The position numbers and the translations under genes are program-made. Below are positions 13,456 to 54,060 of a DNA stretch of 64,000 nucleotides, piece by piece. The notes beneath the pieces were generated by a model. The model searched no databases. It was not told the DNA's origin and saw nothing but the letters and a program-made list of their open reading frames with translations. Each line of letters begins with the position of its first letter. Positions within the stretch are counted from its first letter, which is position 1. Source of the stretch: Gammaproteobacteria bacterium (lineage in GTDB: Bacteria; Pseudomonadota; Gammaproteobacteria; UBA4575); contig OZ243969.1 of NCBI GenBank assembly GCA_965214675.1, positions 47,249-111,248 of the forward strand. Reading direction: 5' to 3'.

Positions 13456-13457
13456 AT

Positions 13458-15640: not shown

Positions 15641-16441
15641 ATGTTGAATTTCCCAAATCTTGATCCCGTTATCTTTTCTTTTGGACCTCTGAAGCTTCAC
15701 TGGTATGGCTTTATGTATGCAGTAGGGTTCCTGTCATTCTGGGGCCTGGCCCATATTCTCGCAAAAAAGGAGCATACAGTAGTACAGCCTGCGGATGTTG
15801 ACGATCTTTTTTTCTATGGCATGTTGGGAGTAGTGCTAGGTGGTCGCCTCGGCTCGGTACTGTTTTATAACCATTCCTATTTTCTTGAAGACCCGCTTTA
15901 CCTGTTCAGGATCTGGGAAGGAGGTATGAGTTTTCATGGCGGGCTGCTGGGTGTCATCATTGTGTTGTGGATTTTTCATAGGAAAAAAGGGTGTAAATTT
16001 TTGCAATTGTGCGATTTTATTGCTCCAACTGTACCAGTGGGGCTTGGGGCAGGGCGAATTGGTAATTTTATTAATGGAGAGCTGTGGGGCCGTGCAACGG
16101 ACGTCCCATGGGGCATGGTATTCCCGGGTGCAGATTCACTGGCCAGGCACCCTTCGCAACTTTACCAGGCCTTTCTGGAAGGCCTGGTATTGTTCTTGAT
16201 ACTTTGGTTGTTTGCAAAAAAACCACGTCCAGGCGGAGCAGTAGCCGGTTTGTTTATGCTGTTGTACGGAGTATTTAGGTTTATGACAGAGTTTGTGCGA
16301 GAGCCCGATATGAACTTGGGGTTTGTCGCCTTCGACTGGATGACGATGGGCCAGCTTTTGACGATACCCATGATCTTGATTGGTGTTCTGTTGATGTATC
16401 AGGCATACATAAGATCTGGGCCAGCAATTCGGACACACTGA
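15641..16441 (+). CDS. lgt: prolipoprotein diacylglyceryl transferase
   Basis: 266 aa with HWYGFMY, GGMSFHGGLLGV and GRIGNFINGELWGR motifs. Synteny is lgt-thyA. Confidence 0.94.
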   Translation: MLNFPNLDPVIFSFGPLKLHWYGFMYAVGFLSFWGLAHILAKKEHTVVQPADVDDLFFYGMLGVVLGGRLGSVLFYNHSYFLEDPLYLFRIWEGGMSFHGGLLGVIIVLWIFHRKKGCKFLQLCDFIAPTVPVGLGAGRIGNFINGELWGRATDVPWGMVFPGADSLARHPSQLYQAFLEGLVLFLILWLFAKKPRPGGAVAGLFMLLYGVFRFMTEFVREPDMNLGFVAFDWMTMGQLLTIPMILIGVLLMYQAYIRSGPAIRTH

Positions 16442-16444
16442 ACG

Positions 16445-17239
16445 ATGCAGCAATATCTTGAACTATTGAGGCACGTCATTGACAAGGGTGTAGAAAAAGA
16501 GGACCGCACCGGTACCGGCACCTATTCTGTCTTTGGCTATCAGATGAGATTTGACCTGGCAGACGGTTTTCCTCTTTTAACTACAAAAAAACTTCATCTG
16601 AAATCAATCATTCATGAACTGTTGTGGTTTTTGAAGGGCGACACCAATATTGCCTACCTGCAAGAAAATGGTGTTTCAATCTGGGATCAGTGGGCTGATC
16701 AAAATGGAGATTTGGGCCCAGTCTACGGCGCACAATGGCGCAACTGGTCTTGTGCTGACGGTAAGTCAATTGACCAGATCACCACATTGATCGAGGGCTT
16801 GAAAGCAGACCCGCTATCAAGAAGGCACATAGTCAGTGCCTGGAATGTTGGCGCACTGGGTGGCATGGCACTGCCACCTTGCCATGCTTTTTTTCAGTTT
16901 TATGTTGCCCAGAATCGACTTTCGTGTCAGCTATACCAACGTAGTGCCGATGTTTTTCTTGGGGTTCCGTTTAACATCGCTTCCTATGCGCTTTTATTGT
17001 TGATGGTTGCACAGGTAACAGGCTATCAAGCCGGTGAGTTTGTGCACACTTTTGGCGACGTACACCTCTACAAAAATCATGTTGAACAGGCGAATCAGCA
17101 ACTTGAGCGAACCCCTTTCGAGTTGCCGAAGATGCACATCAATCCGCAAGTAAACTCAATTTTTGATTTTGTATATGAGGATTTTGAGTTGCAGAATTAT
17201 CAATCTCATGGTCACATCCCAGCCCCAGTAGCAGTCTAG
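16445..17239 (+). CDS. thyA: thymidylate synthase
   Basis: 264 aa with DRTGTGT, active-site [12 protein letters not shown] and [17 protein letters not shown]. Confidence 0.97.
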
Positions 17240-17751
17240 TGCAAAATCCAGAAATTGTTGTTATCGCTGCCATGGCTCATCATGGGGTCATTGGGAAAGA
17301 TGGCGCAATCCCCTGGCATTTGCCTGCAGATTTGCAGCGCTTTAAAAACACCACGATGGGCTATCCCATGGTGATGGGGCGTAAAACTTTTGAGTCACTA
17401 CCGAGTGTGCTGCCAGGTCGGCAGCATGTCATTCTTACCCGAAACAGGAATTACATCGCAAAGGGTTGTGACATTGTCACCTGCTGGGAGGAGGCAAAGA
17501 CCCTACTGGCAGAATCGGAAAAGATATTCGTGATTGGTGGAGCTGAAGTTCATGCACTCGTGTTACCCCATGCGCAGCAGTTAGACCTTACATTCGTGCA
17601 TGCAGAGCTGGAAGGAGATACTTTTTTCCCACAATGGGACAAGAGTCATTGGAAGGAAGTAAGCCGGGAATTTCGTCCCAGGGATGATAAAAACCAATAT
17701 GACCTGGAAAATATTCGGTATCTGCGTATCAACAGGGGTTTGAAGAGTTGA
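17239..17751 (+). CDS. folA: dihydrofolate reductase
   Basis: 170 aa with VIGKDGAIPWHLPADLQRFK and MGRKTFESL. Its GTG start overlaps the thyA TAG stop by 1 nt. Confidence 0.92.
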   Translation: MQNPEIVVIAAMAHHGVIGKDGAIPWHLPADLQRFKNTTMGYPMVMGRKTFESLPSVLPGRQHVILTRNRNYIAKGCDIVTCWEEAKTLLAESEKIFVIGGAEVHALVLPHAQQLDLTFVHAELEGDTFFPQWDKSHWKEVSREFRPRDDKNQYDLENIRYLRINRGLKS

Positions 17752-17820
17752 AAGGCGCAGCTGCGAGGCATTAATTAAAACAGATTAATCCTGAGTGACA
17801 GAAGACCCAAGGGACAGTGT

Positions 17821-18657
17821 CTAAACGGCCGGAATTGCTCGCTTGGCTTCGCAGGCGATCTGAAATTTCTTGTACTTGGGCTTACGGATTCTTACGGCTG
17901 TCAGCGCCCCGCCCCAAAGGCATCCTGTATCGGTCGCAATAATATTATTACTGTCCCGGTAACCCAATGTTGACCAGTGCCCGAATACAATGGCAGTGTC
18001 TTTGCTTTTCCGTGAACTAATCTCGTACCAAGGCTGCATCTTTGGACCCTGCGTGCCGGGTGGCCCTTTCTCTGTCATACTCATCACACCTTCATGGTCA
18101 CAATAACGCAGCCGTGTGAATGAGTTGGTGATCACACGCAGTCGCTCCCATCCGGTCAGGGTTTCATCCCACTGCCGGGGTGTATCTCCGTACATGTTTC
18201 TCAAAAAGTCGATGTAGTTTCCAGAGCGCAAGATCTCCTCTACCTCATTTGCATATGCGGCTGCGTTTTTAACACTCCACTGAGGGATGATTCCGGCATG
18301 CACCATGGCAATGTTGAGTACTTCGTCAAAGTGCATCAGCGGACGATGTCTTAGCCAGTCGATCAATTCATCCACGTCGCTGGCACGAAGGGTTTCGGCA
18401 AGACTGCTGTATTCTGTAGTCGGTTTAACATTTGCATGGGCTGCCAGCAAATGGAGATCATGGTTCCCCAATACAGTTGTAGCTGATTCACCCAGGGACT
18501 TTATCCAGCGCAGTGTTTCAAGTGATTTTGGTCCTCGGTTGACCAGGTCGCCAACAAACCACAACTCATCGCACTTTGGATTAAATTCAATCTTTTCAAC
18601 AAGTGCAGTCAGCTCATCAAAGCAACCCTGCACGTCTCCAATAGCATAAATAGCCAT
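17821..18657 (-). CDS. apaH: bis(5'-nucleosyl)-tetraphosphatase (symmetrical)
   Basis: 278 aa with metallophosphatase motifs GDVQGC, GDLVNRGP and GNHD. It ends the rsmA-apaG-apaH block. Confidence 0.94.
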   Translation of the reverse strand: MAIYAIGDVQGCFDELTALVEKIEFNPKCDELWFVGDLVNRGPKSLETLRWIKSLGESATTVLGNHDLHLLAAHANVKPTTEYSSLAETLRASDVDELIDWLRHRPLMHFDEVLNIAMVHAGIIPQWSVKNAAAYANEVEEILRSGNYIDFLRNMYGDTPRQWDETLTGWERLRVITNSFTRLRYCDHEGVMSMTEKGPPGTQGPKMQPWYEISSRKSKDTAIVFGHWSTLGYRDSNNIIATDTGCLWGGALTAVRIRKPKYKKFQIACEAKRAIPAV

Positions 18658-20130: not shown

Positions 20131-20700
20131 CTAATCTGTGGTTTTTCTTTGTGCTGGGGAGGGCGCTAAATGCGTACTTGCCGTTGTTTGTGTAGGTGTC
20201 GTGTGCTCAGTGTCATCATGTTTTTGGATTTTCGTTTCTCTGACAACATAGGTACAGATGATTTCATAATGCTCCTGTTCGATCGGCTTAACCAAGGAGA
20301 GAGTAATTATAAGATCTGGATGATAAAGCAGGAGTTGCTTGCTCTCCTTTAGGGTATCTGATGTCGTTGAATCCGTAATTACGCCAAACCGCAGCGCTAG
20401 GCTTCTTCCGATCTGATCTGCAATATTGCGCAAGGCTGCCAAGGTCGTAGAGTTTTTTCTAAGTAAAAGTTGACCCAAGTGGGTTACGCCGAGTGCTGAA
20501 GCATTTTCCGTAATTTCCAACGCGCGTGCTTTGCTGGAAAGGGGCTTGAATTTGAATGCAATTTTTCCGTCATGGAGCAATTCGAATTCTTCGTTGCTCG
20601 AAATAGTGATGACGCGGTCCAAGTCAACGGAATACGCGGCAGGCATACAGCAACTAACCAATAGTACTGAAAGCAGTATAAATTTGATTTTGCGGTTCAT
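20131..20700 (-). CDS. hypothetical secreted protein
   Basis: 189 aa with a signal peptide MNRKIKFILLSVLLVSCCMPAAYS and a Thr/Pro-rich C-terminal tail. I recognise no family and see no clear SD. It is co-oriented with the operon. Confidence 0.5.
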   Translation of the reverse strand: MNRKIKFILLSVLLVSCCMPAAYSVDLDRVITISSNEEFELLHDGKIAFKFKPLSSKARALEITENASALGVTHLGQLLLRKNSTTLAALRNIADQIGRSLALRFGVITDSTTSDTLKESKQLLLYHPDLIITLSLVKPIEQEHYEIICTYVVRETKIQKHDDTEHTTPTQTTASTHLAPSPAQRKTTD

Positions 20701-25700: not shown

Positions 25701-27704
25701 TCACAAGAGTGGTGCAATAACGAGGCTCACGATGGCCATTACGTTGATAAGGATGTTCATGGATGGCCCAGATGTATCCTTGAGTGGGTCACCTACCGTA
25801 TCACCAACCACTAAGGCCTTATGCACGTCAGAGCCCTTGCCACCAAGATTTCCTTTCTCGACGTATTTCTTAGCATTGTCCCAGGCTCCTCCAGCAGTGG
25901 TCATCGTCAGTGCAAGCAGGACACAGCCCAGCAAAGCTCCTCCCAACATACCACCTAGTGTTTTGGCGCCGAAACCAAATCCGACAACCACCGGTGCAAT
26001 CACGGCCAGCAAGCCAGGGGCCACCATGCGTTTTAGTGCAGCCGTGGTAGCAATATCAATACAACGAACTGTGTCAGGTTTTGCTTGGCCTTCAAGCAGC
26101 CCGGGAATCTCATGAAATTGCCTTCGAATTTCCTTGATCATATCGAATGCTGCATCGCCGACGGCGGTAATGGTCAGAGAGGCTACAATGAAGGGGAATA
26201 CCCCTCCAATGAACAATCCAATCAAGACTTCAGGATCACTCAGGTCCAGAGCTAAGGGTTCTTTCCCGTGACTCACCTCAGAAAGAAAGGCCGTGATGAT
26301 CGCCAACGCCGCCAGAGTGGCTGCCCCAATAGCAAATCCTTTGCCAATGGCTGCTGTAGTATTACCCACCTCATCCAGTTCATCGGTGATTTTGCGTACA
26401 TCATCTCCAAGTTCAGCCATCTCAGCTATGCCACCTGCATTATCGGCCACGGGTCCATAGGCATCTATCGCCATGGTAATGCCCACAGTTGCCAGCATAC
26501 CCACTGCTGCAATACCAACTCCGTATAAGTCAGCGAATTGATTGGCAAAAAATATGATTGCAGCGAGACTCAGTATGGGCACAACTACGGACTGGGTACC
26601 TGTAGCTAAACCGGCAATAATCACCGTTGCAGGGCCGGTTTCACCACCTTTTGCAATCTTCCTGACTGGTGCACCACCGGTATAGTATTCAGTGACCAAG
26701 CCAATGATGATCCCTCCTACTGCACCCGCCAGGACGGAGCCCCAGACGCCGATGTTGATCCCGAGTGCATGAACGACCCAGTAAGCAGCAACGATAAAGA
26801 TCACTGCAGCTGAAAAGGTCCCGATTCGCAGTGCTGTGGCGGGGGATTTTCGCGCTGCAGTTTTTACCAGGAAAATTCCCAAAATTGAGCAGACAATGCC
26901 GACTGAAGCCAGACCCAGAGGTAAAAACATCAGGGCCTGTCTTTCGCCCAGGCGTTCAATGACGGCTGGAGCTAGAGTTGCCGAGATAGCTATAGTGGCT
27001 ATGATCGAGCCACAGTATGACTCGAAGATGTCAGATCCCATGCCAGCGACGTCTCCGACGTTGTCCCCAACATTGTCTGCGATGACTCCCGGGTTGCGGG
27101 GATCATCCTCCGGGATACCTGCCTCTATTTTCCCCACCAAGTCGGCCCCCACATCCGCGCTTTTCGTGTAAATTCCGCCACCCACACGGGAAAACAGGGC
27201 TACCACCGAGGCCCCCATCCCGAAGCCGTGAATAACATTCGCTGTTGCAGGATCGCGTCCATAAGCCAAATACAACGCTCCAAGACCAAGCAGTCCCATA
27301 GCAGCTACGGTAAGTCCCATGATGGAACCTCCCATAAAGGCAACATCGAGTGCAGCATCCCGGCCTTTCTCATGTGCTGCCACGGTTGTCCGAACATTAG
27401 CGCGGGTAGCTGTATACATCCCAATATAGCCTGCTGCTGATGAGCACAGCGCACCTACAATAAACGCGATTGCAGTGTTTGGACCTAGGCCCGAAAACCA
27501 GATGAAAACAGTCACCACTGCTGCAAAAGCGTACAGAATTGAATATTCTCGGCGCATGAAAGCCATTGCACCGTCATGGATGGCATCAGATATCTCAATG
27601 ACCTTATTGCTGCCCTGTGGATGGCGAAGTACTGACCGGTATATCCACAGTGCAATGACAAGTCCCAGAACACCTAAGGTGAAGGGTAAATGATGAATGG
27701 TCAT
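25701..27704 (-). CDS. hppA: membrane-bound ion-translocating pyrophosphatase, K+-dependent-type signature
   Basis: 667 aa and polytopic, with [26 protein letters not shown] and GDTVGDP motifs. It has [14 protein letters not shown] (Ala and Gly) rather than the GNTTKA..TKG of K+-independent enzymes. Confidence 0.93.
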
Positions 27705-40452: not shown

Positions 40453-41148
40453 ATGCGAAGAATTTTACTGGGTGTGAAGGGTTTGTTTTTCCTGGTGTTG
40501 ATACTGTCGGGCCCGCCAGTTTTTGCCAGTGGCGAGGTACTTAAATCTCCAATTCTAGATCGCGTTAAGATACTTTATTCAGCCCCAAGCAATCTGCAAG
40601 ATTTGACTTTGGAGCAATTGCATGAAGAAAGGGCTGTGCTCGAAAAAGAACTCAATTCTTTCCGCCAGGCCAGCGACGCCCCTGAAATTGCCAAGCAAAA
40701 ATTCCTTGAAACTGTTTTCGAGCACGATGACAAACGCTTGCAGATTGTCGGGGTAATTCGCGACCTGATCGATGAGTATCAAATTGAAGGAAAATTTCGT
40801 GATGATTTGATTGGTTACAGCAATACATTTGATGTAGCGGTCAGGAATGCCCGTAAGCATGTTCATACATTGGAAGACTACAGATCATACGACTTCAGGT
40901 TTTCTGCTGTCTATATGTCCATGATGATGAGGTTCAATGAAGACCCCGAGTTTCGAAAACGCATGGTGGCAGATATGCAAAATCCGGATACATCATGGGG
41001 CAAGTATCGCAAGGAAATAGATGAGTCTTATGCCGAGGTACAGCGTAAAAAATTTCTCATTCAGAACATATACTCAGTCAATGAGCTCGAGCGGGCAGTC
41101 ACGAGCATCGATGAGGAAATTTCCAGAAGGGGACGTACGGAGTTGTAG
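40453..41148 (+). CDS. hypothetical secreted protein
   Basis: 231 aa with a signal peptide MRRILLGVKGLFFLVLILSGPPVFA. AAGGA SD lies upstream. The mature part is charged and helical. No family was recognised. Confidence 0.6.
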   Translation: MRRILLGVKGLFFLVLILSGPPVFASGEVLKSPILDRVKILYSAPSNLQDLTLEQLHEERAVLEKELNSFRQASDAPEIAKQKFLETVFEHDDKRLQIVGVIRDLIDEYQIEGKFRDDLIGYSNTFDVAVRNARKHVHTLEDYRSYDFRFSAVYMSMMMRFNEDPEFRKRMVADMQNPDTSWGKYRKEIDESYAEVQRKKFLIQNIYSVNELERAVTSIDEEISRRGRTEL

Positions 41149-42889: not shown

Positions 42890-43756
42890 CTATCGGGAGC
42901 TCGTCATTTGTTGGGCAATCTTGTAAATTGCGTCTGCGTCTAGTACTTGGTCATTGGATGTAAACAGTCTTCCAATACAGGCGCGGTGCAGCTTCAGCTT
43001 CAATGCGCCTATACCAAGGCCTCCAAAAACTTTCTTACCAAATCTTTCAGTATTCCTGTCGTTCATGCTAATGCCCTCAAAGCCGAGGGGTTCCGCAGTA
43101 CTGACATCAGCCAGAATTTCAATGGAGTCATGTTTTTGCCATTGTTCTGCATCGAGTAAGCGGATTCCTGCCTTGCCTGCACCAAATACAACTTGCGCTC
43201 CTTCCAGCGCGGTCTGAACCGAACCATGATCACGGGCTTCCACAGGTGCAAGTTCGACTCCAAATTGTTTTCCCATGTCTTCGCATGCCTGCTTTGAACG
43301 ACTCATTTCTCTTGATGTCAGGCGTACTTGAGCACCGCTTTGTGCCAGCATCACTGCAGCACGCTGTCCCACGGGTCCCGTACCGGCAAGGACCACGGCA
43401 ATTTTCCCTGCTAACGAGCCAGCTTGGTTTAGCAACGTGACACCAGCTGCAGCAGTGGTATTGCAGCCGTTGCTGTCCAGCATCACGGATACGCGAAAAT
43501 CTTGGAAAAAATGACTTTGTATGGCCTTGAACAAAGACTGGCTGCTGATGAGGTTACTACCGCCTACAAAGATTGCGGTATTCTTTTTATGTTTGGGTGC
43601 CCGTGTATAGATCGCACCTTCGACGAGGCTTGCACAATTATTTTCATGAATGCCCCCAAGTTGGGTAACCTGGTCTGCTCCCCCATCATATGCAACCACA
43701 GAATCAAATACACTGGGGAGGGGGTCAGTATCAAAATGGTACAAAAGCTTTTTCAT
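42890..43756 (-). CDS. mtdA: NADP-dependent methylene-H4F / methylene-H4MPT dehydrogenase
   Basis: It aligns along its whole length with M. extorquens MtdA as I recall it (KKLL..FDTD..PSVFD.VV.YDGGAD, TAIFVGG, MLDSNG.NTTAAAGV, VLAGTGPVG, LGIG.LKLKLHRACI). The start is placed at MKKLL. The ORF track begins 9 codons earlier (43783). Confidence 0.9.
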   Translation of the reverse strand: MKKLLYHFDTDPLPSVFDSVVAYDGGADQVTQLGGIHENNCASLVEGAIYTRAPKHKKNTAIFVGGSNLISSQSLFKAIQSHFFQDFRVSVMLDSNGCNTTAAAGVTLLNQAGSLAGKIAVVLAGTGPVGQRAAVMLAQSGAQVRLTSREMSRSKQACEDMGKQFGVELAPVEARDHGSVQTALEGAQVVFGAGKAGIRLLDAEQWQKHDSIEILADVSTAEPLGFEGISMNDRNTERFGKKVFGGLGIGALKLKLHRACIGRLFTSNDQVLDADAIYKIAQQMTSSR

Positions 43757-43792
43757 AGTATGCAGGGGTAACACCACACTCAAACGGGATGC

Positions 43793-46567
43793 TCAGCCAG
43801 TACTACCAATTCCTGCTGCGACACAGTTGATAGACAAAAGCAGGGGAACCAGAATATTTTGCCTGTCCAGAGCATTGTCTTGCTCACTGCGAAACTTTTT
43901 GACTAACTCGGCCTGTTCAATACCCACCTGATTCAAAGACTTGAGACGCCTGTTGAAGTGTCTTTTAAAGTTCGGAAAACGGTCACACAGCTGGTCTTCA
44001 CCTGTGATCTGCAAGACCATTTCCGTTGTACGCTCGTACTCAGCTCTAATCGCTGAGTAAATTGCTTGGCTGTACTGGCTGTTAACCACCAGTTCTACAT
44101 ATTTTTCAGCAACTTGCAAGTCAACTAGCAACAACGTTTTTTCTACGCTGTCTAGTACCAACCGAAACAAGGAATGCTTGATATACAGCTCTTGCAATAA
44201 TTCTTTCCCTCGTTCTCCTCGTATGCTGATCAGTTGCTCAAAACTGCTTCCGACCCCGTACCATCCTGGGACCAAAATACGGTTTTGCGTCCAGGCAAAT
44301 ACCCAGGGTATTGCGCGTAAGTCATCGAGAGTTGTCGCACCAAACCTGCTTGAAGGCCTTGATCCGATTTTCATAAGTGTCAGTTCCTCAACGGGACTTG
44401 CCTGCTGATAGAACTCTACTAGACCCGGTGTTTCAATTAACTTGCGGTACATGACATACGCTGTCCCCGAAAGTGCTTCCATGACTTCATCGAGCTCGGC
44501 ATTGATTTGGAAGGCAGGGTCTTTGCCTGACATCAGTGTGTGTGTGAGTGCGCTGGAAGCGAGGATTTCCATCTGTTCTTCTGCAAAACCACGGTTTGCA
44601 TACTTGTACGATACGACTTCGCCCTGCTCTGTGACTCGCATGCGTCCATCAATTGTACCTACGGGCTGAGCTGCAATGGCACGGCCGCTGGGTGCGCCAC
44701 CCCGACTTACCGAGCCGCCACGACCATGAAAGAATGAAGCCGGAATTTTGTGCTTGTCCCCGACCTCCTTTATTCGAGTCTGGGCCTTACTGATGATCCA
44801 ATTGGAAGTAAAAAATCCGCCATCTTTGTTAGAGTCCGAGTAGCCCACCATGACCTCTTGAGACTCTCCATTTCTGCGTATCGTTCGCCTGATAAATCCG
44901 TATTCGAGCAATTCATTCAAAATAGAGGGCCCCTGTTCCAGGGCCTCTATGGTCTCCAATAAAGGTACGACCAGAATCCGACAGGCTTCCAAACCATCGA
45001 CATCCGTAAACAGTCCCGCATACTTCGCTAACAGGTATACCCCTAGTACATCAGTTGATGTCTGCGTCATGCTGAGTATAAAGGCGCCAAACGTGTCCGG
45101 GTCCAGTTTACTTTGATAGTGCTTAACCTGTGCAAGCATGGTTAACGTTGATTGTGCCCGGTCGGAAAGAAAATCAGTGTTTGGGATTACGCGTAGTGGC
45201 CGCATCAGTTCGCTAACAACCCATTCTTTCCATTCATCTGATTTGAAATCTGGAACATCAAAGTGTGTTTTCTGATGCAAGGTTTGCCAGATTTCTGCAA
45301 GAACATTGTTTGTTACGGTCGTATTCTCGCGAAGATCCAGGCTGACCGTTCGAAAGCCGAAGGTATCCACCATATGTCGCAGTGGCGATAAGTTCGACCG
45401 GCTGAGGTGCTCACAGCGGGCATCATCCAGTCCACGCTCGAGTGTCCGCAAATCGTTTGCCAGACCGGATGCGCTGCGATAGGCGATATCTGATTTTTTT
45501 GGGTCATCAATATTTTGTAGTGTCGCGTCGATGCTGCGCAGCATACAACTCAGGTACTGTCTGAACACCTCACCAGGATTTCGTTTCGAAAAGGATTCTG
45601 TCTCTTCCAGCATTTCGAGTTTTTGTTCGAGAGCTTTGATGAAGTCCTCAGAAACTCGTAATGAATGGCTGGCGATGCTCAGCTTGGAACCGAGCTTGAT
45701 CAAATCCTGACGATATCGTTTCAGACTCGCACGGGCATTTTCACGGATAGCAAATGCGGTAACTTCGGCATCTACATCCGGATGACCATCTCGATCACCA
45801 CCTATCCAGGATCCAAACCGGAAAACGGGGGGTATTTCAAATTCAATGTGCGGGTACATTTTTCTCAAGGCACGATTTAATTCAGCATAAAATCTCATCA
45901 CGCCATCAAACAAAGATTCCGTAAAAAAGTGCAGGCCCCATGTAACCTCTTGGGCAACAGTAGGCTTTTCCAGGCGGATCTCACCTGTCAGCCAGAGAAG
46001 ATCGATCTCATTGCGCAATTCGTGAATGAGTTCATCGCGTTCGCGGGGTGTCCAGCGCGTCAGTTCTAATTGCTTGAGCAGTATGTAAATTCGCCTGTGA
46101 ATTTCCAGCACGGTTACACGCTTAGCCTCAGTGGGGTGTGCAGTAATTACCGGGCAGATAAAGCTCTTGTTAAGTATCTTCTGAATGTCCTCTGCCGGAA
46201 CATTGTGCTGGGCTGCCATGGAAAATGTATATGCGAAAGTTCCTGGCACACGGCGACGCCCGTATTCCTTTTCTATCTGGCGGCGCTGCTGCACCGTTGC
46301 ATTTTGTTCAGCGATGCTAAGTAGCTGAAACCAGATGCCATGAGCCTCCAAAATGTACAGAATCTGTGAATCTGTGCTTTCACGGATGTCTCGGTGGCCC
46401 TCTATGAAGGCTTCTATATCCGGTTGCCGGGTCCGCAGCACACTCAGTAGCTCTTTGTACAGCAGGTCTACAAGCTTGTTTTCATAGCTTGCAGCCGGAT
46501 CAATAATGGCACGTCCAGTAGCAACCCGGGTCAGTTGGGTCCAGGAAAGTGGAGAAATATCACTCAT
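43793..46567 (-). CDS. ppc: phosphoenolpyruvate carboxylase
   Basis: 924 aa with VITAHPTEAKR, GYSDSNKDGGFF and the C-terminal ...GIGSTG. Confidence 0.95.
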   Translation of the reverse strand: MSDISPLSWTQLTRVATGRAIIDPAASYENKLVDLLYKELLSVLRTRQPDIEAFIEGHRDIRESTDSQILYILEAHGIWFQLLSIAEQNATVQQRRQIEKEYGRRRVPGTFAYTFSMAAQHNVPAEDIQKILNKSFICPVITAHPTEAKRVTVLEIHRRIYILLKQLELTRWTPRERDELIHELRNEIDLLWLTGEIRLEKPTVAQEVTWGLHFFTESLFDGVMRFYAELNRALRKMYPHIEFEIPPVFRFGSWIGGDRDGHPDVDAEVTAFAIRENARASLKRYRQDLIKLGSKLSIASHSLRVSEDFIKALEQKLEMLEETESFSKRNPGEVFRQYLSCMLRSIDATLQNIDDPKKSDIAYRSASGLANDLRTLERGLDDARCEHLSRSNLSPLRHMVDTFGFRTVSLDLRENTTVTNNVLAEIWQTLHQKTHFDVPDFKSDEWKEWVVSELMRPLRVIPNTDFLSDRAQSTLTMLAQVKHYQSKLDPDTFGAFILSMTQTSTDVLGVYLLAKYAGLFTDVDGLEACRILVVPLLETIEALEQGPSILNELLEYGFIRRTIRRNGESQEVMVGYSDSNKDGGFFTSNWIISKAQTRIKEVGDKHKIPASFFHGRGGSVSRGGAPSGRAIAAQPVGTIDGRMRVTEQGEVVSYKYANRGFAEEQMEILASSALTHTLMSGKDPAFQINAELDEVMEALSGTAYVMYRKLIETPGLVEFYQQASPVEELTLMKIGSRPSSRFGATTLDDLRAIPWVFAWTQNRILVPGWYGVGSSFEQLISIRGERGKELLQELYIKHSLFRLVLDSVEKTLLLVDLQVAEKYVELVVNSQYSQAIYSAIRAEYERTTEMVLQITGEDQLCDRFPNFKRHFNRRLKSLNQVGIEQAELVKKFRSEQDNALDRQNILVPLLLSINCVAAGIGSTG

Positions 46568-46682: not shown

Positions 46683-47654
46683 TTAAACCAGCTTGTCTTT
46701 TGGTGTGTCGCCCGCTTCAAATGCAGCCAGGTTTTCCAGTACACGATTACCCATTGCAATACGTGTCTCAGTTGAGGCACTGCCCAAATGAGGCAGCAGC
46801 ACGGCATTTTCCAATTCAAGGAAACGCTTGTCCAGGTTGGGTTCGCCTTCAAATACATCCAGGCCTGCACCCGCAATCGTGCCATTTTTTAACGCCTCAA
46901 TTAATGCATCATTATCGATCACATCACCGCGCGCCGAATTGATGAGAAATGCGCCGGGCTTCATTTTGGCCAGATTTTCCTTGTTCAGGAGATGGTAGGT
47001 TTCTTTGCCGCCCGGGCAGTGAATAGACACGAAGTCCGAATTTGCAAGAACCTCGTCGATCGATTCGTATTGAGTCGCATTGTATTTCTTTATAACCTCA
47101 TCAGAGGGGGGGTAGGGATCCACGAAGATTATCTTCATTCCAAAGCCATGATGTGCTCGCTTTGCCATAGCCTGTGCAATTCGTCCCATGCCGATCATGC
47201 CCAGGGTTTTGCCGGTCACTTTGGTGGCCAGCAAGTGTGTAGGCCGCCAGCCTGTCCACGCATTGGCACGCAGGTGGCGTTCCCCCTCACTCGTACGCCT
47301 TGCTGCGGTTAACAGCAATGTCATTGCAATATCCGCTGTGCAGTCGGTAAGCACCTCGGGTGTATTGGTTACGGTCAATCCGCGGGCTTTGGCTGCATCC
47401 AGGTCAATGTGGTTGAATCCTACCCCAAAATTGCCGATGAACTTGGCTCGCAGTGGCTCAGCACTTAATACTTCCGCATCGACAGGATCCGTCACGGTGG
47501 GCAGAAACACATCGCAATTGCCCAATGCCGCTTTCATTTCGTCCTTGGTCATGGCAACGTCAGTCTCATTCAGCTGCACGTCATAGTTCTCTTTCAGTGT
47601 AGCTTCCACTTCTGCAGGCCAGGCGCGCGTGACGATGACTTTCAATTTGCTCAT
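46683..47654 (-). CDS. hprA: hydroxypyruvate reductase / glycerate dehydrogenase (D-2-hydroxyacid dehydrogenase family)
   Basis: 323 aa with the NAD motif GMIGMGRIAQAMA and the catalytic R..E..H pattern (SARG, LLPHLGS). Its N-terminus resembles M. extorquens HprA and it lies in the serine-cycle cluster. Confidence 0.85.
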   Translation of the reverse strand: MSKLKVIVTRAWPAEVEATLKENYDVQLNETDVAMTKDEMKAALGNCDVFLPTVTDPVDAEVLSAEPLRAKFIGNFGVGFNHIDLDAAKARGLTVTNTPEVLTDCTADIAMTLLLTAARRTSEGERHLRANAWTGWRPTHLLATKVTGKTLGMIGMGRIAQAMAKRAHHGFGMKIIFVDPYPPSDEVIKKYNATQYESIDEVLANSDFVSIHCPGGKETYHLLNKENLAKMKPGAFLINSARGDVIDNDALIEALKNGTIAGAGLDVFEGEPNLDKRFLELENAVLLPHLGSASTETRIAMGNRVLENLAAFEAGDTPKDKLV

Positions 47655-47666: not shown

Positions 47667-48557
47667 CTAGGCAAGATCTTTCAGGACCCTTTCCATGGTT
47701 GATCCGAGTTCAGATGGGTCTGGTGCAACAGTTACTCCGGCTTTCTCAAGCAGCTCCACCTTCTCAGCAGCACTTTCGCCTTTGCCGGATACAATAGCAC
47801 CCGCATGGCCCATGCGACGGCCTTTAGGTGCTGTCAGTCCTGCAATGTAGGCAACCAACGGTTTGGTCATGTGATTTTTAAAATATTCCGCGGCATCAGC
47901 TTCCTGAGGCCCCCCAATTTCGCCAATCAGCATGACAGCCTTTGTTTCTGGGTCCGCTTCGAATAACTCAAGGATGTCGCGGTGAGAGCAACCGTTGATC
48001 GGGTCACCACCAATTCCAACACTCGTGCTGATACCGATCCCGCATGCCATCATTTGAGATGCAGCCTCATAACCAAGTGTGCCTGAACGTGCAACAATGC
48101 CTACATTTCCAGGGATGTAAATGTGTCCCGGCATTATGCCGAGAAGACATTTTTCAGGACTGATCGTTCCGGCACAGTTGGGGCCTGTCAGCCGCATCCT
48201 GTCTTCTTTCTTGTAGCGGTACATGTAACGCTTTACAAGCATCATATCCTGTGCAGGAATGCCATCAGTGATCGCAACACAGGTTTTGATACCTGCATCG
48301 GCTGCTTCCATGATTGAATCAGCAGCGAATGAAGCAGGCACAAATACGATGCTGGCATCGGCGCCCGTTTCTTCCACGGCATCTTTCATTGTGTTGAAGA
48401 CAGGAAGTTCGAGATGGGTTTGTCCGCCCTTGCCAGGAGTAACGCCGCCGACTACTTGGGTACCGTATTCGAGCATTTCCTTTGCATGGAAAGTACCTAT
48501 TTTCCCTGTGAAGCCCTGGATCAGTACCTTGGTATTGTTATCAATCATTATGCTCAT
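47667..48557 (-). CDS. mtkB: malate--CoA ligase (malate thiokinase) subunit beta (SucD-like alpha-type subunit)
   Basis: 296 aa with a CoA-ligase alpha fold and the phospho-His region GHAGAIVSG. It is paired with mtkA next to mclA. Confidence 0.82.
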   Translation of the reverse strand: MSIMIDNNTKVLIQGFTGKIGTFHAKEMLEYGTQVVGGVTPGKGGQTHLELPVFNTMKDAVEETGADASIVFVPASFAADSIMEAADAGIKTCVAITDGIPAQDMMLVKRYMYRYKKEDRMRLTGPNCAGTISPEKCLLGIMPGHIYIPGNVGIVARSGTLGYEAASQMMACGIGISTSVGIGGDPINGCSHRDILELFEADPETKAVMLIGEIGGPQEADAAEYFKNHMTKPLVAYIAGLTAPKGRRMGHAGAIVSGKGESAAEKVELLEKAGVTVAPDPSELGSTMERVLKDLA

Positions 48558-48573: not shown

Positions 48574-49752
48574 TTATGAGGCTTCAACGACGCGGTTGCG
48601 TTCTGCTACAACTTTTTCTGCAGCTTCAGATAACGTGTCTGCAGTGATGACGGGGTAGCCACTGTCTTTGAGCATCTGCATACCTTTTTCAACATTCGTT
48701 CCCGAAAGACGCACTACTACAGGGGTTCTTACATCGAGTTTGCCGAATGCCTGTATTACGCCCTCTGCAATCCAGTCACAGCGGTTAATACCTGCAAATA
48801 TGTTGACCAGCATTGCTTTTACTTTTTCATCATCCAGGACAAGCTTGAACGCCTTGGTGACCCGATCCGGTGATGCGCCGCCCCCAATATCCAGAAAGTT
48901 GGCTGGCTCGCCACCTTTGTGCTTGATCATGTCCATGGTTGCCATGGCCAATCCTGCACCATTGATCATGCAGCCAATGTCTCCATCCAGGCCCACATAG
49001 CTCAGACCTCTGTCAGATGCCGCAGTTTCACGCGAGTCTTCCTGGGACTTGTCCCGCAACTCTGAGATCTTCGGTCTGCGAAAGAGGGCGTTATCATCAA
49101 AGCTCATCTTGGAATCCAGTGCCAAGATGTGATTGTCCTTGGTAACGACCAGGGGGTTGATTTCCACCAGGGTGGCATCAAGTTCACGAAAGGCACTGTA
49201 AGCGCCCTCGATACAATGCACTGCCTGGCTGATCATCTCAGGATGAATGTTGAGAGCAAAAGCAAGCTCCCTGGCCTGAAAATCCCGCAAGCCCACTGCG
49301 GGTTCAACTTCCAGTCTGAAAATGGTTTCCGGCTTCGTGGCAGCCACTTCTTCAATATCCATACCACCTTCTGAAGAGGTAACTATGACGACCCGCTGCT
49401 TGTTCCGGTCCAGTACCAGGGCAAGATAAATTTCACGTTCTATGTCTGAAACCTGCTCGATATAGAGCCGGTATACTACTTTCCCACTCGGGCCGGTCTG
49501 ATGAGTCACCAGACGCTTGCCAAGTAATTCCTCAGCGGCGTTCCAGATCTCCTCGTCGTTCGAACAGACCTTGATCCCCCCGGCCTTACCTCGTGCACCG
49601 GAATGGATCTGTGCCTTGACCACCCACTGGTGTCCGCCTATTTCCTTGGCTCGGTAGACTGCTTGCTCCGGGCTGTATGCCAGCCCGCCAGGCGAGATCG
49701 CCACGCCAAATTCCGATAGTAATTCTTTCGCTTGATATTCATGAATATCCAC
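48574..49752 (-). CDS. mtkA: malate--CoA ligase (malate thiokinase) subunit alpha (SucC-like ATP-grasp subunit)
   Basis: It is very close to M. extorquens MtkA as I recall it ([55 protein letters not shown]). GGGAGGGA abuts the ATG at 49758, so the GTG at 49752 ([12 protein letters not shown]) is the better-spaced start. Confidence 0.87.
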
Positions 49753-49928
49753 TAGCATTCCCTCCCGAGAATAATAATTCGTTTTTGCCGTGATGCCTGT
49801 CTAGAGCAGTTATCAGGCTCAAGCCCCGCAGCCAAATCAGGTCTTGCTCCCCATCGCATTGATGGGTTGATCTCCAAATCCTGGGAGATTGACACAGCAC
49901 CTGGACAAACGGAAAAACTGCTAAGTCT

Positions 49929-50870
49929 TTAAGACTTGGCAGCAATGGCTTCCGCAGCGCGCACAATATTTTCAGCCATACGCGCAGATGCTGCATCGAT
50001 CATTTTGCCATCGAGTGAGGCAGCACCTTTGCCCTCTTTGGCAGCCTTTTCCAGTTCTTCAAGAATCCTTTTGGCCTTGTTCGTCTCAGCTTCAGGCGGT
50101 GTAAAGACTTCATTTGCCAGGTCAATCTGCTTGGGATGAATGGCCCACTTGCCCTCACACCCCAGCGCAGCAGCACGTCGCGCGGCCAGAAGATACCCAT
50201 CAGGATCATCGAAATCACCGAATGGTCCGTCAATCGGGCGAAGTCCATAGGCCCGGCAGGCGACTGTCATACGCGAGATTGCAGCATGCCATTGATCACC
50301 AGGATAATCAGGATTCAAGCCGCCAATATTGACAGTACGTGCACGGTTGCTTGCAGCATAATCGGCAACACCGAAATGCATGGCTTCCATACGCGTACTG
50401 GAAGTAGCAATGGCTTCAACGTTTGCCATACCCAAGGCGGTCTCGATAAGGGCTTCAAGACCAATTCGGTTTTCCAGCCCCTTGGCCTCCTCGATCTGGG
50501 TAACCATGGCATCGACCATATAGACATCACCGGTTGTCCCCACTTTAGGAATGAGTATGGTGTCAAGCTTGTTACCTGCCTGTTCAACTACATCCACCAC
50601 ATCGCGGTACATATAGTGTGTGTCCAACCCATTGATGCGCACAGAAACCGTTTTTCCGTGACCTTTCCAGTCAAACTCATTTAACGCGGCAATTACATTT
50701 TTTCGCGCCTGGACCTTGTCATCCGGCGCTACGGCATCCTCAAGGTCAAGGAATACATAATCTGCGTCACAGGTCAGTGCTTTTTCCAGCATCCTGGGAT
50801 TGGACCCGGGCACAGCAAGTTCACAACGCTGTAATCGCTGTCGGGCCGGTTTGTATTGAGTAAAGCTCAT
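49929..50870 (-). CDS. mclA: malyl-CoA lyase
   Basis: 313 aa. SELAVPGSNP..., FLDLEDAVAPDDK.QARKN.I.ALN, and RINGLDTHYMYRDVVD.VE match M. extorquens Mcl as I recall it (HpcH/CitE fold). Confidence 0.9.
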   Translation of the reverse strand: MSFTQYKPARQRLQRCELAVPGSNPRMLEKALTCDADYVFLDLEDAVAPDDKVQARKNVIAALNEFDWKGHGKTVSVRINGLDTHYMYRDVVDVVEQAGNKLDTILIPKVGTTGDVYMVDAMVTQIEEAKGLENRIGLEALIETALGMANVEAIATSSTRMEAMHFGVADYAASNRARTVNIGGLNPDYPGDQWHAAISRMTVACRAYGLRPIDGPFGDFDDPDGYLLAARRAAALGCEGKWAIHPKQIDLANEVFTPPEAETNKAKRILEELEKAAKEGKGAASLDGKMIDAASARMAENIVRAAEAIAAKS

Positions 50871-50880: not shown

Positions 50881-52137
50881 TTATGATTTCTTCTTCATTT
50901 TGGTTCGTGCCTCACGAGGCGCCTTAGCTGAACCGAATTTTTTGATTTTTTTGGCAGTCTTGCGGTAGTACTCTCCGGCTGCGGCAACTCCGCTACCCGG
51001 TTTTACCTTCATGCCTGCATCCCGCATTGCCATTTCCACAGTGCCTAGGACCGCCATCATACGTGCTTCGTTGTTGTCTCCGAGATGCCCGATTCGGAAC
51101 ACCTTGCCGGCCACTTTGGACAACCCAGCGCCAAGAGAAATATTGTAGCGGTGATAGGCAATATGGATCACTTCAGCTGCGTTAACACTGGGAGGCACTT
51201 CAATTGCAGTCACAGTGTCAGAGTACCACTTGGGTGACTTCGCACAGGGTTTGAGCCCCCAGGCCCTGACTGCTTTGCGCACGCCTTCCGCCAGGCGGTG
51301 ATGACGCTTGAACACGTTTTCCAAACCCTCATCCATGAGCAAGTCAATTGACGCCCGCAGTCCCCGCAGCATGGGTACCGACGGAGTGTAGGGGAAGTAC
51401 CCGTCTTTGTTGGTATTGATATGATCCTGTATGTCAAGAAAACAACGTGCACACTGGGCCTGTTTCCGTGCTCTGAGTGCCTTTGGGCTGAATGCAACGA
51501 TGGCCATGCCTGCAGGCAACATGAATCCTTTTTGTGATCCACTGACAGCCACATCTACACCCCATTGATCCATGCGGAAATCAATGCTCGCAATTGAACT
51601 TACTCCATCGACCATCAGCATAGCCGGATGCTTGACAGCATCCAGGGCCCGGCGCAAACCAGCAATATCACTGGTCACACCGGTTGCAGTTTCGTTATGA
51701 CAAACTACCACTGCACGGATTCTGTGCTCTTTATCCGCAGCAAGGATGCGCTTGAATTTGGCAATCGGAACACCTTCGCCCCAAGGGGTTTCAACCAGAT
51801 CGACCTCCAGGCCAATCCGGCATGCAAGGTCATACCACAAGTGACTGAACTGACCAAAGCGTGTAGTGAGTATCTTGTCTCCGGGAGACATGGTATTGGC
51901 CAAGGCGACCTCCCAGCCGGCAGTACCTGTGGCTGGAAACAGAAAGCAGGTGCCCTTAGTGGTTTTGAAGATTTTTTTGCAGTCGCGTAGCAGGGGTTTG
52001 ACAAGTTCTGGAAAATCAGGCGCCCGGTGGTCCTCTTGAGGAACGATCATGGCGTTTTGCACGGCCTGGGGAATATGGGTCGGGCCTGGTGCAAACAGGT
52101 AATTTCGTCCAGGAAATGATAATTTTTCGCTAGGCAT
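50881..52137 (-). CDS. sgaA: serine--glyoxylate aminotransferase
   Basis: 418 aa, class V aminotransferase, with PLP-lysine in VAVSGSQKGFMLP. It heads the mcl-mtk-hpr genes. It has an unusual Lys-rich C-terminal tail. Confidence 0.87.
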   Translation of the reverse strand: MPSEKLSFPGRNYLFAPGPTHIPQAVQNAMIVPQEDHRAPDFPELVKPLLRDCKKIFKTTKGTCFLFPATGTAGWEVALANTMSPGDKILTTRFGQFSHLWYDLACRIGLEVDLVETPWGEGVPIAKFKRILAADKEHRIRAVVVCHNETATGVTSDIAGLRRALDAVKHPAMLMVDGVSSIASIDFRMDQWGVDVAVSGSQKGFMLPAGMAIVAFSPKALRARKQAQCARCFLDIQDHINTNKDGYFPYTPSVPMLRGLRASIDLLMDEGLENVFKRHHRLAEGVRKAVRAWGLKPCAKSPKWYSDTVTAIEVPPSVNAAEVIHIAYHRYNISLGAGLSKVAGKVFRIGHLGDNNEARMMAVLGTVEMAMRDAGMKVKPGSGVAAAGEYYRKTAKKIKKFGSAKAPREARTKMKKKS

Positions 52138-52400
52138 GATTAAAAATCCTTATTGTGAAATTTGATAAAATTCGTAAGCGCCTTGATTGTTGTTCCTGTT
52201 GTCAGAACAGATAATTCCGCATGCAAGAAGCTACTGTCCGAAAAACCCAGCATCTTGCCATAAGGACAGTGCCTGACTCAAGCAATTTGGGTAATTGATG
52301 GAAGGCTCAAACTTGAGTGGAGGCTGTCTCCAAAGCCTCCATAGGCCCTGTATGCAGAAAGTCAGGGCTCTGCAGGGTGTAGTACGTTCAAATCCCTGGA

Positions 52401-53318
52401 TTAAGGCTGCTTTTCAGGGTGCAGGAAGATAAAGCTTTTGCCCAGTCGCCCGCCATAGTTGCCAGCAGAAATCATGATCAAGCCCGGCGTGTCCACCGAA
52501 GCCCTGATGGCCGCCTGAGTGGCATCAATGATGGGCTGCATGCCTTGACCATTCATGATGATTTCCATTACTGAATGCACCCCTTCCGGGAGTCCTGCCT
52601 CGACATCCGGGTTATCCTGCAACAGCGGACAAAACTTCTCATAGGTGCTGGCAATAGTGAAGTCATAATTGCTGCCTGCCTTTGAGCCACTTCCCGCAAT
52701 TCCCCCCGGGAAGGTCGTGATGACACCGGGCAGGGGCAGAATAGCTTCAACACCCTTTTCCGCGGCTTCAAGCGCAGCGTCCACACTGTCTCCAAAGAAC
52801 CACAAATTGCCACCCATCAGGCCATCTGCATAACCGAGTCGACGATCCATAATGAATTCGCCTCCCAAGATCGGGATCCACCACATTTTTCTACCAAAGC
52901 GCTCAATGCGTCTTTGGTAACCGTTACCGAAATAGGCTACCTTGCGCCCCATGTGGTAGTAATCTTCTGAATCGATCAGGTTAAAGCACGAAGCCGTTGG
53001 GCAGGTGAGTACATTCTGGCTGATACGAACCAGCGCCGAACGCTCCAGTGCCTGGACCCGGTCCTTTCTGAAACGCGGTATATGCAGTTGTATGATTGCG
53101 CCCGGGCGCCCATCTGGCGTGACAAATGCCTCATCTCCGCCAGGCCCTACATAGCGGTCCATGCCTGCTTCACAGTCACAAAGGATCGAACTGGATGCAT
53201 TTCCAGTTACAGCATGTACGGCATGATCCAGCCACTTTCGGTCACGAGCGGTAATCAGGAATTCGGTATACAGACTCCTGAATGCTTCAGCGTACGTATC
53301 ATCGATATTAGCTGGCAT
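52401..53318 (-). CDS. ftr: formylmethanofuran--tetrahydromethanopterin N-formyltransferase (Ftr/FhcD family)
   Basis: 305 aa. IDDTYAEAF, TPDGRPG, YFG.G.Q, GGEF, FPGG...SGSK.GS.Y, VMEI...G and ISAGNYGG.LG all parallel FhcD/Ftr. Confidence 0.88.
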   Translation of the reverse strand: MPANIDDTYAEAFRSLYTEFLITARDRKWLDHAVHAVTGNASSSILCDCEAGMDRYVGPGGDEAFVTPDGRPGAIIQLHIPRFRKDRVQALERSALVRISQNVLTCPTASCFNLIDSEDYYHMGRKVAYFGNGYQRRIERFGRKMWWIPILGGEFIMDRRLGYADGLMGGNLWFFGDSVDAALEAAEKGVEAILPLPGVITTFPGGIAGSGSKAGSNYDFTIASTYEKFCPLLQDNPDVEAGLPEGVHSVMEIIMNGQGMQPIIDATQAAIRASVDTPGLIMISAGNYGGRLGKSFIFLHPEKQP

Positions 53319-53320
53319 GA

Positions 53321-53962
53321 CTAATCCCTTCCGATACCTTCATAAACTGCATCCTCGGTAATCACCTTATCCATGTAAACATCATGCGGGGCTACCAGGA
53401 CTTCATCAAACAGTTGTGACTCGTAGCACAGTGCAACCAGTGGGCAGTCCGGGCGTGCTTTTTCCAGCAAGCGATCATAATAGCCCTGTCCGTTCCCCAT
53501 GCGCCCGCCCTTACGGTCGAATCCCACTCCAGGTACCATGATGATATCAAGGTCTTCGGGTTCCACCTCTTTCTCGGGATTTCCCCACATTTCCCTGGGT
53601 GGTTCCAGAATGTTCCACTTGCCTACGATCATTTCTTCAAGGCTTTCCATCCACCAGAGTCCAAGCTTGTTTTCACCATGTTCATCTTCGGTGCAATAGG
53701 GCACGATAATTTTTTTCTCGCCCTTGGCCACCTCTTCCAGTAGCTGGGGTTTGGTGCGGGTCTCCGAGCGACAGTCAATGTACCACATCGCGATGTTTGC
53801 ACGTTGGTATTCAGGCAGGTCGATAAATTTCTGGCAGGCCTGGGCACTGATCTCATCCTTGTTTTCCTGCGCGTTCCGTCGATCATAGGCCTCACGGCGC
53901 ATCTTGTTTTTGCGCTCCATTACAGCTGCTAGTTCTTCGGGGGATAGTAAAGTGGCCATCAC
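53321..53962 (-). CDS. 5-formyltetrahydrofolate cyclo-ligase family protein
   Basis: 213 aa with the family core VPGVGFDRKGGRMGNGQGYYDRLL (E. coli YgfA has [23 protein letters not shown]). Its TAG stop lies 2 nt before the ftr ATG. Confidence 0.85.
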   Translation of the reverse strand: MMATLLSPEELAAVMERKNKMRREAYDRRNAQENKDEISAQACQKFIDLPEYQRANIAMWYIDCRSETRTKPQLLEEVAKGEKKIIVPYCTEDEHGENKLGLWWMESLEEMIVGKWNILEPPREMWGNPEKEVEPEDLDIIMVPGVGFDRKGGRMGNGQGYYDRLLEKARPDCPLVALCYESQLFDEVLVAPHDVYMDKVITEDAVYEGIGRD

Positions 53963-54060
53963 AACTCCTGAGATATAGTTCTAGTTATTTCGGGTACATA
54001 ATTTGCAACTGGCAGGGATTATCCTAAAGGATTTACTGTCTGCCTGACAATTTCGAATTT

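Follow-up and report, generated by a model that had tools for sequence, protein, structure and literature searches.

Enzymes of the 5-formyltetrahydrofolate cyclo-ligase (5-FCL) family are nearly universal, and there has long been debate over their physiological function apart from salvage. Serine hydroxymethyltransferase (SHMT) forms 5-formyltetrahydrofolate (5-formyl-THF) as a by-product. This compound is a thermodynamic sink, and its cyclisation needs ATP, whereas the conversion of formyl-tetrahydromethanopterin (formyl-H4MPT) to methenyl-H4MPT needs none. Methanogens devoid of folate have a 5-FCL homologue, for which a function on 5-formyl-H4MPT has been speculated (Kaster et al., 2011; PMC3087415). 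Formate uptake at N5 of tetrahydrofolate (THF), followed by 5-FCL and with a first enzyme described as 'unrecognized', has also been proposed, and this N5 route was regarded as intermediate in evolution between uptake of the methanogen type and uptake of the acetogen type (Braakman & Smith, 2012, 2014; PMC3334880, PMC3917532). Here we analyse a pair of genes in a 64,000-nt stretch of contig OZ243969.1 (the window, to which all results refer unless other loci are named). The first gene encodes a protein of the 5-FCL family (FCL2) and the second a protein of the formylmethanofuran:tetrahydromethanopterin formyltransferase family (Ftr2), and the pair lies upstream of a serine-cycle gene cluster. 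We propose, with a probability of roughly 0.45, that FCL2 and Ftr2 form a co-translated two-enzyme module that would bring formyl groups into the folate pool via N5.

The FCL2-Ftr2 gene pair and its conservation

The pair and the serine-cycle genes are all encoded on the minus strand. The features of the pair itself are as follows.

53321..53959, minus strand: FCL2, 5-formyltetrahydrofolate cyclo-ligase family, 212 aa, the upstream member of the pair (PF01812, TIGR02727)
52401..53318, minus strand: Ftr2, formylmethanofuran:tetrahydromethanopterin formyltransferase family, 305 aa (PF01913 and PF02741, NF002554)
54021..54050, minus strand: sigma-70-like promoter match upstream of FCL2, in the 98-nt spacer between ilvD and FCL2 (TTGTCA-18-TAGGAT, 9/12 consensus matches)

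The TAG stop codon of FCL2 (read as 'cta' in plus-strand letters at 53321-53323) is separated from the ATG start codon of Ftr2 ('cat' at 53316-53318) by a gap of 2 nt (53319-53320), and a Shine-Dalgarno-like run, GGAAGGGA, lies within the 3' end of the FCL2 gene ahead of Ftr2. An earlier prediction made on this DNA (the original prediction) had described this same-strand adjacency with a 2-nt gap, and re-reading of the coordinates confirmed it. FCL2 has two candidate starts, an ATG at 53957-53959 and a GTG at 53960-53962, of which the ATG is the more likely and gives 212 aa, as in database protein P0001. Ftr2 ends with a TAA codon at 52401-52403, and a spacer of 263 nt (52138-52400) separates it from the ATG of sgaA at 52135-52137. 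Promoter-like sites were observed in the number expected from shuffled sequence, and the site at 54021..54050 is a consensus match only. Searches of Rfam and for terminator sites found no riboswitch or terminator around FCL2-Ftr2.

We surveyed one genome per species, scanning with an alignment of the window Ftr and its closest relatives, and obtained at least 567 stretches encoding a relative of this Ftr. The best 80 loci, in which Ftr2 was 65-95% identical to that of the window, were kept, and the upstream region could be assessed in 77 of them. FCL2 was present immediately upstream of Ftr2 and on the same strand in 67 of these 77 loci, drawn from three phyla, and 50 of these 67 pairs had a distance between the two genes of -4 to +9 nt. 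In one further locus the FCL gene was divergently oriented to Ftr2. The gammaproteobacterial loci came from metagenome-assembled genomes (MAGs) of sponge and marine lineages labelled Ca. Porisulfidus, Oxydemutatoraceae, Thiotrichales and Arenicellales, together with two Methylococcales. Planctomycetota with Ftr2 belonged to the Pirellulaceae, Planctomycetaceae and Gemmataceae, and Acidobacteriota made up the third phylum-level group. The top Ftr2 matches were MAGs or environmental sequences throughout, with no cultured planctomycete carrying Ftr2 among them, and the family is abundant, being represented by thousands of environmental sequences.

Recurrence across phyla places the adjacency of the two genes far beyond chance. 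Neighbouring genes vary outside the gammaproteobacteria, which indicates that the two-gene pair itself is the conserved unit. Pairwise identities of FCL2 and Ftr2 also co-varied (Spearman 0.84 over 65 loci; the pairs are not independent, and the coefficient carries no p-value). Both open reading frames (ORFs) of the window are intact and 90-95% identical to the copies in sister species, with synteny kept. We considered one apparent natural FCL-Ftr fusion, P0233 (environmental, 410 aa), and rejected it, since it proved to be a read-through of the two neighbouring genes, brought about by frameshifts in an error-prone contig. Where Ftr is truly fused, the partner is an FhcA-like or FhcC-like domain, and the Ftr is of a canonical type.

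These comparisons of sequence and gene order support the view that FCL2 and Ftr2 act as a functional unit. The original prediction had looked to relatives for conservation of the adjacency and had regarded the two genes as functionally coupled. The first expectation is borne out by the pairs kept across the three phyla, and the second by the near-abutting or overlapping frames and the co-variation of the two proteins.

Sequence features of Ftr2 and FCL2

Ftr2 shows the two-lobe architecture of its family, with full-length coverage of both domains, PF01913 (FTR) and PF02741 (FTR_C), at 139.5 and 155.6 bits. The protein passed the NF002554 model (308.2 bits, cutoff 297), narrowly failed the fhcD equivalog model TIGR03119 (one_C_fhcD; 290.2 bits, cutoff 292.6), and was nearer to archaeal Ftr structures (~225 bits) than to Methylorubrum extorquens FhcD (162 bits). 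The catalytic Glu, the role of which has been described in Ftr/FhcD (PMC6926001), is conserved, E252 of Ftr2 aligning with Glu245 of the M. kandleri enzyme and Glu252 of FhcD. Ftr2 retains 21 of 22 near-invariant columns (those at least 90% conserved in canonical Ftr sequences). The sole changed column has Glu in place of M. kandleri Arg22; this could be taken as a sign of new specificity, but it is not decisive, since Ala occupies this column in the FhcD of M. extorquens, a proven enzyme. Two insertions are specific to the clade, one at about residues 60-65 and a second, basic one at about residues 81-88, and about 20 invariant residues are peculiar to it, one of them beside the catalytic Glu.

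When the whole Ftr family was reduced to 963 representatives at 50% identity, a single full-length representative fell in the clade of the window protein (68% identity), and the remaining representatives were at most 49% identical to the window Ftr2. Ftr2 sequences are at least 60% identical pairwise across phyla. In a neighbour-joining tree they formed a tight, well-separated group, distinct from archaeal Ftr, M. extorquens FhcD, canonical acidobacterial FhcD and the canonical planctomycete type. As judged by identity and tree position, Ftr2 is a distinct subclade of the Ftr family.

FCL2 matched PF01812 (130 bits, cutoff 27) and passed the TIGR02727 model (129.3 bits, cutoff 84.9). Its catalytic and ATP-binding residues are kept (in human MTHFS numbering, R14, E61, P81, R145, GxGxGYYD, Q178 and D189). 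Across 70 FCL2 sequences, the N-terminal Arg, Glu61, Arg145, GxGxGYYD and Asp189 show a conservation of at least 95% and are the same as in the human, B. subtilis and Aquifex enzymes, to which, as characterised or solved 5-FCLs, FCL2 is only 30-33% identical. Identity to the Ftr2-linked copies of other phyla is 44-68%.

Enterobacteria usually carry the ygfA/5-FCL gene just after 6S RNA. In the window, 6S RNA was located at 4022-4205 on the minus strand (58.5 bits), and directly downstream of it is an EVE-domain gene (3504-3956, minus strand, 206 bits). The earlier observation that an EVE-domain gene occupies the ygfA place downstream of ssrS is confirmed by these two matches. The accompanying suggestion, that FCL2 is a relocated and recruited ygfA, is not supported: FCL2 fails the E. 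coli-type YgfA model NF007661 (47.7 bits, cutoff 343) and groups with planctomycete and acidobacterial FCL2. From these relationships, FCL2 is best described as a dedicated subfamily inherited with the Ftr2 subclade.

Genomic neighbourhoods of the pair

The commonest gene order in gammaproteobacteria is ilvD / FCL2-Ftr2-FolD-sgaA-mclA-mtkAB-hprA-ppc-mtdA. The folD gene directly follows Ftr2 in about 30 gammaproteobacterial loci (L001-L006, L010, L013-L034 except L016, L036, L037, L039, L041, L042 and L044), often abutting or overlapping it, and the FCL2-Ftr2-FolD trio also occurs without serine-cycle genes nearby (L026 and L027). The sublineage of the window, together with L007-9, L011, L012, L016 and L038, is without folD at this site and keeps mtdA. 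FolD and MtdA were considered as mutually exclusive alternatives, but this was ruled out, since mtdA follows ppc in the relatives too, including those that bear folD. The ancestral cluster was likely FCL-Ftr-FolD-sgaA...ppc-mtdA, and the 263-nt spacer at this site, which holds no folD remnant, implies clean loss or relocation of folD in the window sublineage.

Two departures from the common order were seen among the relatives. Within Ca. Porisulfidus (L029, L031, L034 and L037, ~11800-17900), a subtilase gene (Peptidase_S8, ~800 aa) and a small ORF split folD from sgaA. An Arenicellales locus on a 4.7-Mb chromosome (L035, 7085-12390) has the order sgaA-hprA-FCL2-Ftr2 and is without folD, mcl or mtk in the vicinity; a Beta_elim_lyase-family (threonine-aldolase-like) gene follows FCL2-Ftr2 on the opposite strand.

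Canonical planctomycete Ftr genes served as a control. They adjoin Mch, FhcC and H4MPT-biosynthesis genes and have no 5-FCL. The two pairings, Ftr with Mch and Ftr2 with FCL2, indicate that each formyltransferase type travels with its own N5-formyl-to-methenyl enzyme; Mch, the partner of canonical Ftr, is ATP-independent, whereas FCL2, the partner of Ftr2, is ATP-dependent. At three loci the pair lies inside or beside an island of H4MPT/methanofuran genes, in the following orders.

L059: FCL2, Ftr2, then Mch and MptN
L060 (Acidobacteriota MAG JAQBHI010000068.1, 1-13695): fhcD, mptN, fhcA and fhcC, then directly FCL2 and Ftr2
L063: Mch, MptN, CitG-like, ATP-grasp_3, Hydantoinase_A-like, FCL2, Ftr2, Pterin_4a, pterin-binding protein and PabB

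In these island loci the pair is linked to the methanofuran/H4MPT system. An fhcA or fhcC gene was found near Ftr2 in only one of the 80 loci, L060, where the canonical fhcD is 39-43% identical to Ftr2; no other locus shows the two Ftr paralogues side by side so clearly. The coexistence of canonical FhcD and/or Mch with the pair in L059, L060 and L063 suggests that the pair is an addition with a distinct role. The original prediction had called the window Ftr an orphan. This holds for the 64 kb, in which none of its usual partners is present, and does not extend to Acidobacteriota and one Pirellulaceae locus, where the pair lies inside H4MPT/methanofuran islands.

Downstream of the pair, the window carries the following features.

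52138..52400, minus strand: spacer between Ftr2 and sgaA, 263 nt, the site of folD in most gammaproteobacterial relatives; no folD remnant, terminator-like site or Rfam match
50881..52137, minus strand: sgaA-like class-V aminotransferase, serine-glyoxylate type (PF00266; NF045640 (BhcA) 604 bits, cutoff 650)
49929..50870, minus strand: mclA, malyl-CoA lyase-type, HpcH/CitE family (PF03328; syntenic in relatives)
48574..49758, minus strand: mtkA, malate-CoA ligase beta subunit (NF010647 684 bits, cutoff 604)
47667..48557, minus strand: mtkB, CoA ligase alpha subunit (NF004230 439 bits)
46683..47654, minus strand: hprA, D-2-hydroxyacid (hydroxypyruvate/glyoxylate) reductase (PF02826 and PF00389)
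43793..46567, minus strand: ppc, phosphoenolpyruvate carboxylase, 924 aa (homologous to PF00311 PEPcase genes in relatives)
42890..43783, minus strand: mtdA, NADP-dependent methylene-H4MPT/methylene-THF dehydrogenase (PF09176; 298 bits to M. extorquens MtdA 1LU9/6TGE)

The cluster thus contains the full Methylorubrum-type serine-cycle gene set (sgaA, hprA, mtdA, mtkA, mtkB, ppc and mclA), and sgaA is syntenic in 35 loci. The order sgaA-mclA-mtkAB-hprA-ppc-mtdA downstream of the pair stands as originally given, with the distance to sgaA corrected from 262 to 263 nt. The gene calls also agree with the original statement that argE, and not fch, follows mtdA: argE begins 1 nt after the end of mtdA, and no fch lies beside it. 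The mtdA product is the predicted consumer of methenyl pterin. The score of the SgaA-like protein lies just below the cutoff of the equivalog model for BhcA, an aspartate-glyoxylate aminotransferase, so its amino donor may not be serine (604 vs 650 bits). The same protein has a lysine-rich C-terminal tail of ~25 residues (…KKIKKFGSAKAPREARTKMKKKS).

Among nearly all larger ORFs of the window, Pfam annotation detected housekeeping genes but none of fhcA/B/C, mch, fae, mtdB, fch and folD. A tblastn search of the window with FolD, Mch, FhcA, FhcC, MptN and other H4MPT-island proteins of other loci gave no match, and no folD remnant was found by tblastn in the 263-nt spacer. FCL2 is the only 5-FCL-family gene in the window. 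The genes thyA and folA, which are adjacent and overlapping (16445-17751, plus strand), and a stand-alone gcvH (11654-12052, plus strand) indicate ordinary folate metabolism in a folate-using organism. Elsewhere in the window are a membrane H+-pyrophosphatase gene (25701-27704, minus strand), two ORFs of no clear family, neither with a Pfam match at E <= 1e-5 (2913-3398, plus strand, and 20131-20700, minus strand), and an ORF without clear family that resembles a secreted protein (40453-41148, plus strand); these three ORFs fall in the range of 161-231 aa.

Proposed function and comparison with known systems

The locus is read most coherently as a formyl to methenyl to methylene branch into the serine cycle. 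Ftr2 would take a formyl group from a formyl-amine donor and transfer it onto N5 of a tetrahydropterin. The island linkage suggests that the donor would most likely be formyl-methanofuran or formyl-methylofuran, and the pterin would most likely be THF, so that the product would be 5-formyl-THF. FCL2 would spend one ATP to convert 5-formyl-THF to 5,10-methenyl-THF, and MtdA, plus FolD in most relatives, would reduce methenyl-THF to methylene-THF with NADPH. SHMT would then join methylene-THF and glycine, starting the serine cycle that is encoded directly downstream. Such a module would take the place of formate-THF ligase and Fch at the same one-ATP cost, and would connect the folate pool with that of methanofuran/H4MPT, with no need of free formate. 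We infer the reaction order and the identities of the pterin and the formyl donor.

A branch feeding the serine cycle had been part of the original prediction, and is reinforced by the presence of folD after Ftr2 in relatives and by the parallel with canonical Ftr-Mch. The bypass of Fch that had been suggested with it would apply to the window sublineage only, since FolD supplies the cyclohydrolase in the relatives. The substrate originally named was N5-formyl-H4MPT, and here the context favours 5-formyl-THF. THF is preferred because ATP is thermodynamically required for cyclisation of 5-formyl-THF and not of 5-formyl-H4MPT, because Mch is on hand already in H4MPT islands that contain the pair, and because most gammaproteobacteria show a translational link between folD and Ftr2. 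It is preferred also because FCL2 matches the 5-FCL motifs and the curated model, and because bacterial SHMT takes methylene-THF and is not known to take methylene-H4MPT. The presence of Mch or canonical FhcD in the same islands further suggests that Ftr2 and FCL2 are not simple replacements acting on H4MPT.

Several observations weigh against this proposal. Nine planctomycete-type loci have Ftr2 without FCL2 within 10 kb. The conserved Ftr residues of Ftr2 do not point to THF having replaced H4MPT as substrate, and at the level of sequence the two pterins are not discriminated. MtdA also accepts H4MPT, and the embedding of the acidobacterial pair in H4MPT/methanofuran islands fits an H4MPT substrate equally well. 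Genes for methanofuran, Fhc or H4MPT were found neither in the window nor in the ~40 gammaproteobacterial loci, and the proposed donor would be missing if these gammaproteobacterial genomes of 1.6-2.8 Mb are without methanofuran. It is doubtful, on balance, that Ftr2 is specifically a formyl-methanofuran (or other formyl-amine):THF N5-formyltransferase which, with FCL2, provides a widespread and horizontally mobile N5 route replacing FtfL and Fch. If this were true and the small gammaproteobacterial genomes were without methanofuran, Ftr2 would use an undescribed formyl donor.

Alternatively, the pair may act entirely on H4MPT. Ftr2 would then perform ordinary formyl-methanofuran:H4MPT transfer, and FCL2 would be an ATP-driven 5-formyl-H4MPT cyclo-ligase that renders the reductive direction irreversible, in a route from formate through formyl-methanofuran, formyl-H4MPT and methenyl-H4MPT to methylene-H4MPT, the last step being catalysed by MtdA. 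We regard this as rather unlikely. The retention by Ftr2 of the catalytic Glu and of 21/22 near-invariant Ftr columns agrees with such a route, as do the position of the pair within H4MPT/methanofuran islands at L059, L060 and L063, an operon that encodes MtdA, which accepts both H4MPT and THF, and the 5-formyl-H4MPT role proposed for a 5-FCL homologue in methanogens that have no folate (Kaster et al., PMC3087415). Hydrolysis of ATP could also pull the endergonic conversion of formate to formyl-methanofuran; the hydrolysis of formyl-methylofuran (formyl-MYFR) amounts to -22.9 kJ/mol (PMC6926001). However, FCL2 would be redundant beside Mch in the same islands (L059 and L063), and no ATP is required for H4MPT cyclisation. 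The translational link of folD to Ftr2 in most gammaproteobacteria also speaks against this route, and the window and all the gammaproteobacterial loci were devoid of H4MPT genes. To our knowledge, methylene-H4MPT is not a substrate of SHMT in bacteria, and a route ending in methylene-H4MPT would not feed the adjacent serine cycle.

It is less credible still that the two enzymes are not sequentially coupled at all, FCL2 salvaging 5-formyl-THF, the inhibitory by-product of SHMT, Ftr2 serving as an ordinary oxidative H4MPT-pathway enzyme, and the two being merely co-regulated as C1 (one-carbon) genes. FCL2 does lie above the curated 5-FCL equivalog cutoff with all 5-FCL motifs, and no other gene of its family lies in the 64 kb. 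SHMT is known to produce 5-formyl-THF, the salvage of which would be useful in a serine-cycle context with high SHMT flux. Nevertheless, the pair, with overlapping stop and start, is kept in planctomycetes and acidobacteria with no SHMT or serine-cycle gene nearby, FCL2 is a subfamily of its own that co-varies with Ftr2, and canonical Ftr genes are without a 5-FCL companion. That the pair is a decaying or non-functional, horizontally acquired remnant with an unexpressed duplicate ftr is very improbable: although the TIGR03119 score falls just under the trusted cutoff and the partner genes are not in the 64 kb, both ORFs are intact, 90-95% identical to those of sister species and in conserved synteny, the catalytic residues are kept in both proteins, and the family is abundant, with thousands of environmental sequences.

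Ftr2 is an assayable candidate enzyme for the entry of formyl or formate units into folate in organisms without formate-THF ligase; hundreds of species genomes encode it, and environmental sequences of it number in the thousands. If the proposed N5 module is real, maps of C1 flux would have to be revised for serine-cycle bacteria, for sponge-associated and marine gammaproteobacteria, and for planctomycetes and acidobacteria, and the automatic use of an 'Ftr' annotation as a marker of H4MPT-dependent formaldehyde oxidation would be corrected. The pair would then also represent a living intermediate between the methanogen-type and acetogen-type formate uptake steps, a route joining the methanofuran/H4MPT and folate pools without free formate, and a compact two-gene part for engineered formate assimilation.

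A literature search for any paper linking Ftr with 5-FCL found none. The original prediction, which knew of no described 5-FCL working with Ftr, stands in this respect, although the related idea for methanogens is already in print (PMC3087415). Among described systems, canonical Ftr/FhcD with Mch, in methanogens, methylotrophs and planctomycetes, has the same family, two-lobe architecture and catalytic Glu as Ftr2, and its formyltransferase is likewise genetically paired with an N5-formyl-to-methenyl enzyme. Ftr2 differs in forming a separate tight subclade with two insertions, and in having an ATP-dependent 5-FCL as its partner instead of Mch. The combination of FtfL, Fch/FolD and MtdA in Methylorubrum extorquens shares with the proposed module the delivery to methylene-THF, the cost of one ATP and the same serine-cycle genes. 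Entry through FCL2-Ftr2 would, in contrast, be via N5 and not N10, the enzyme families are unrelated, and the cluster of the window has no ftfL or fch.

The housekeeping enzyme MTHFS/YgfA resembles FCL2, which passes TIGR02727, in fold family and in every catalytic and ATP-binding motif, whereas FCL2 is only 30-33% identical to characterised members, lies away from the ssrS locus and is co-inherited with Ftr2 across phyla. Glutamate formiminotransferase, in histidine catabolism, also attaches a C1 unit to N5 of THF and works beside 5-FCL chemistry, but it belongs to a different family and a different pathway from Ftr2, and its donor is formimino- or formyl-glutamate. The two published proposals, for folate-free methanogens and for N5 formate uptake on THF, both place a 5-FCL-family enzyme in the main C1 flux after N5 formylation, as does the scheme for FCL2-Ftr2. 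Those proposals named no N5-formylating enzyme and no gene linkage, whereas in the present case the 5-FCL has a genetic partner in one particular subclade of Ftr. The Ftr2-FCL2 pair, both proteins of which come from known families, is a concrete candidate for the hypothesised N5 route.

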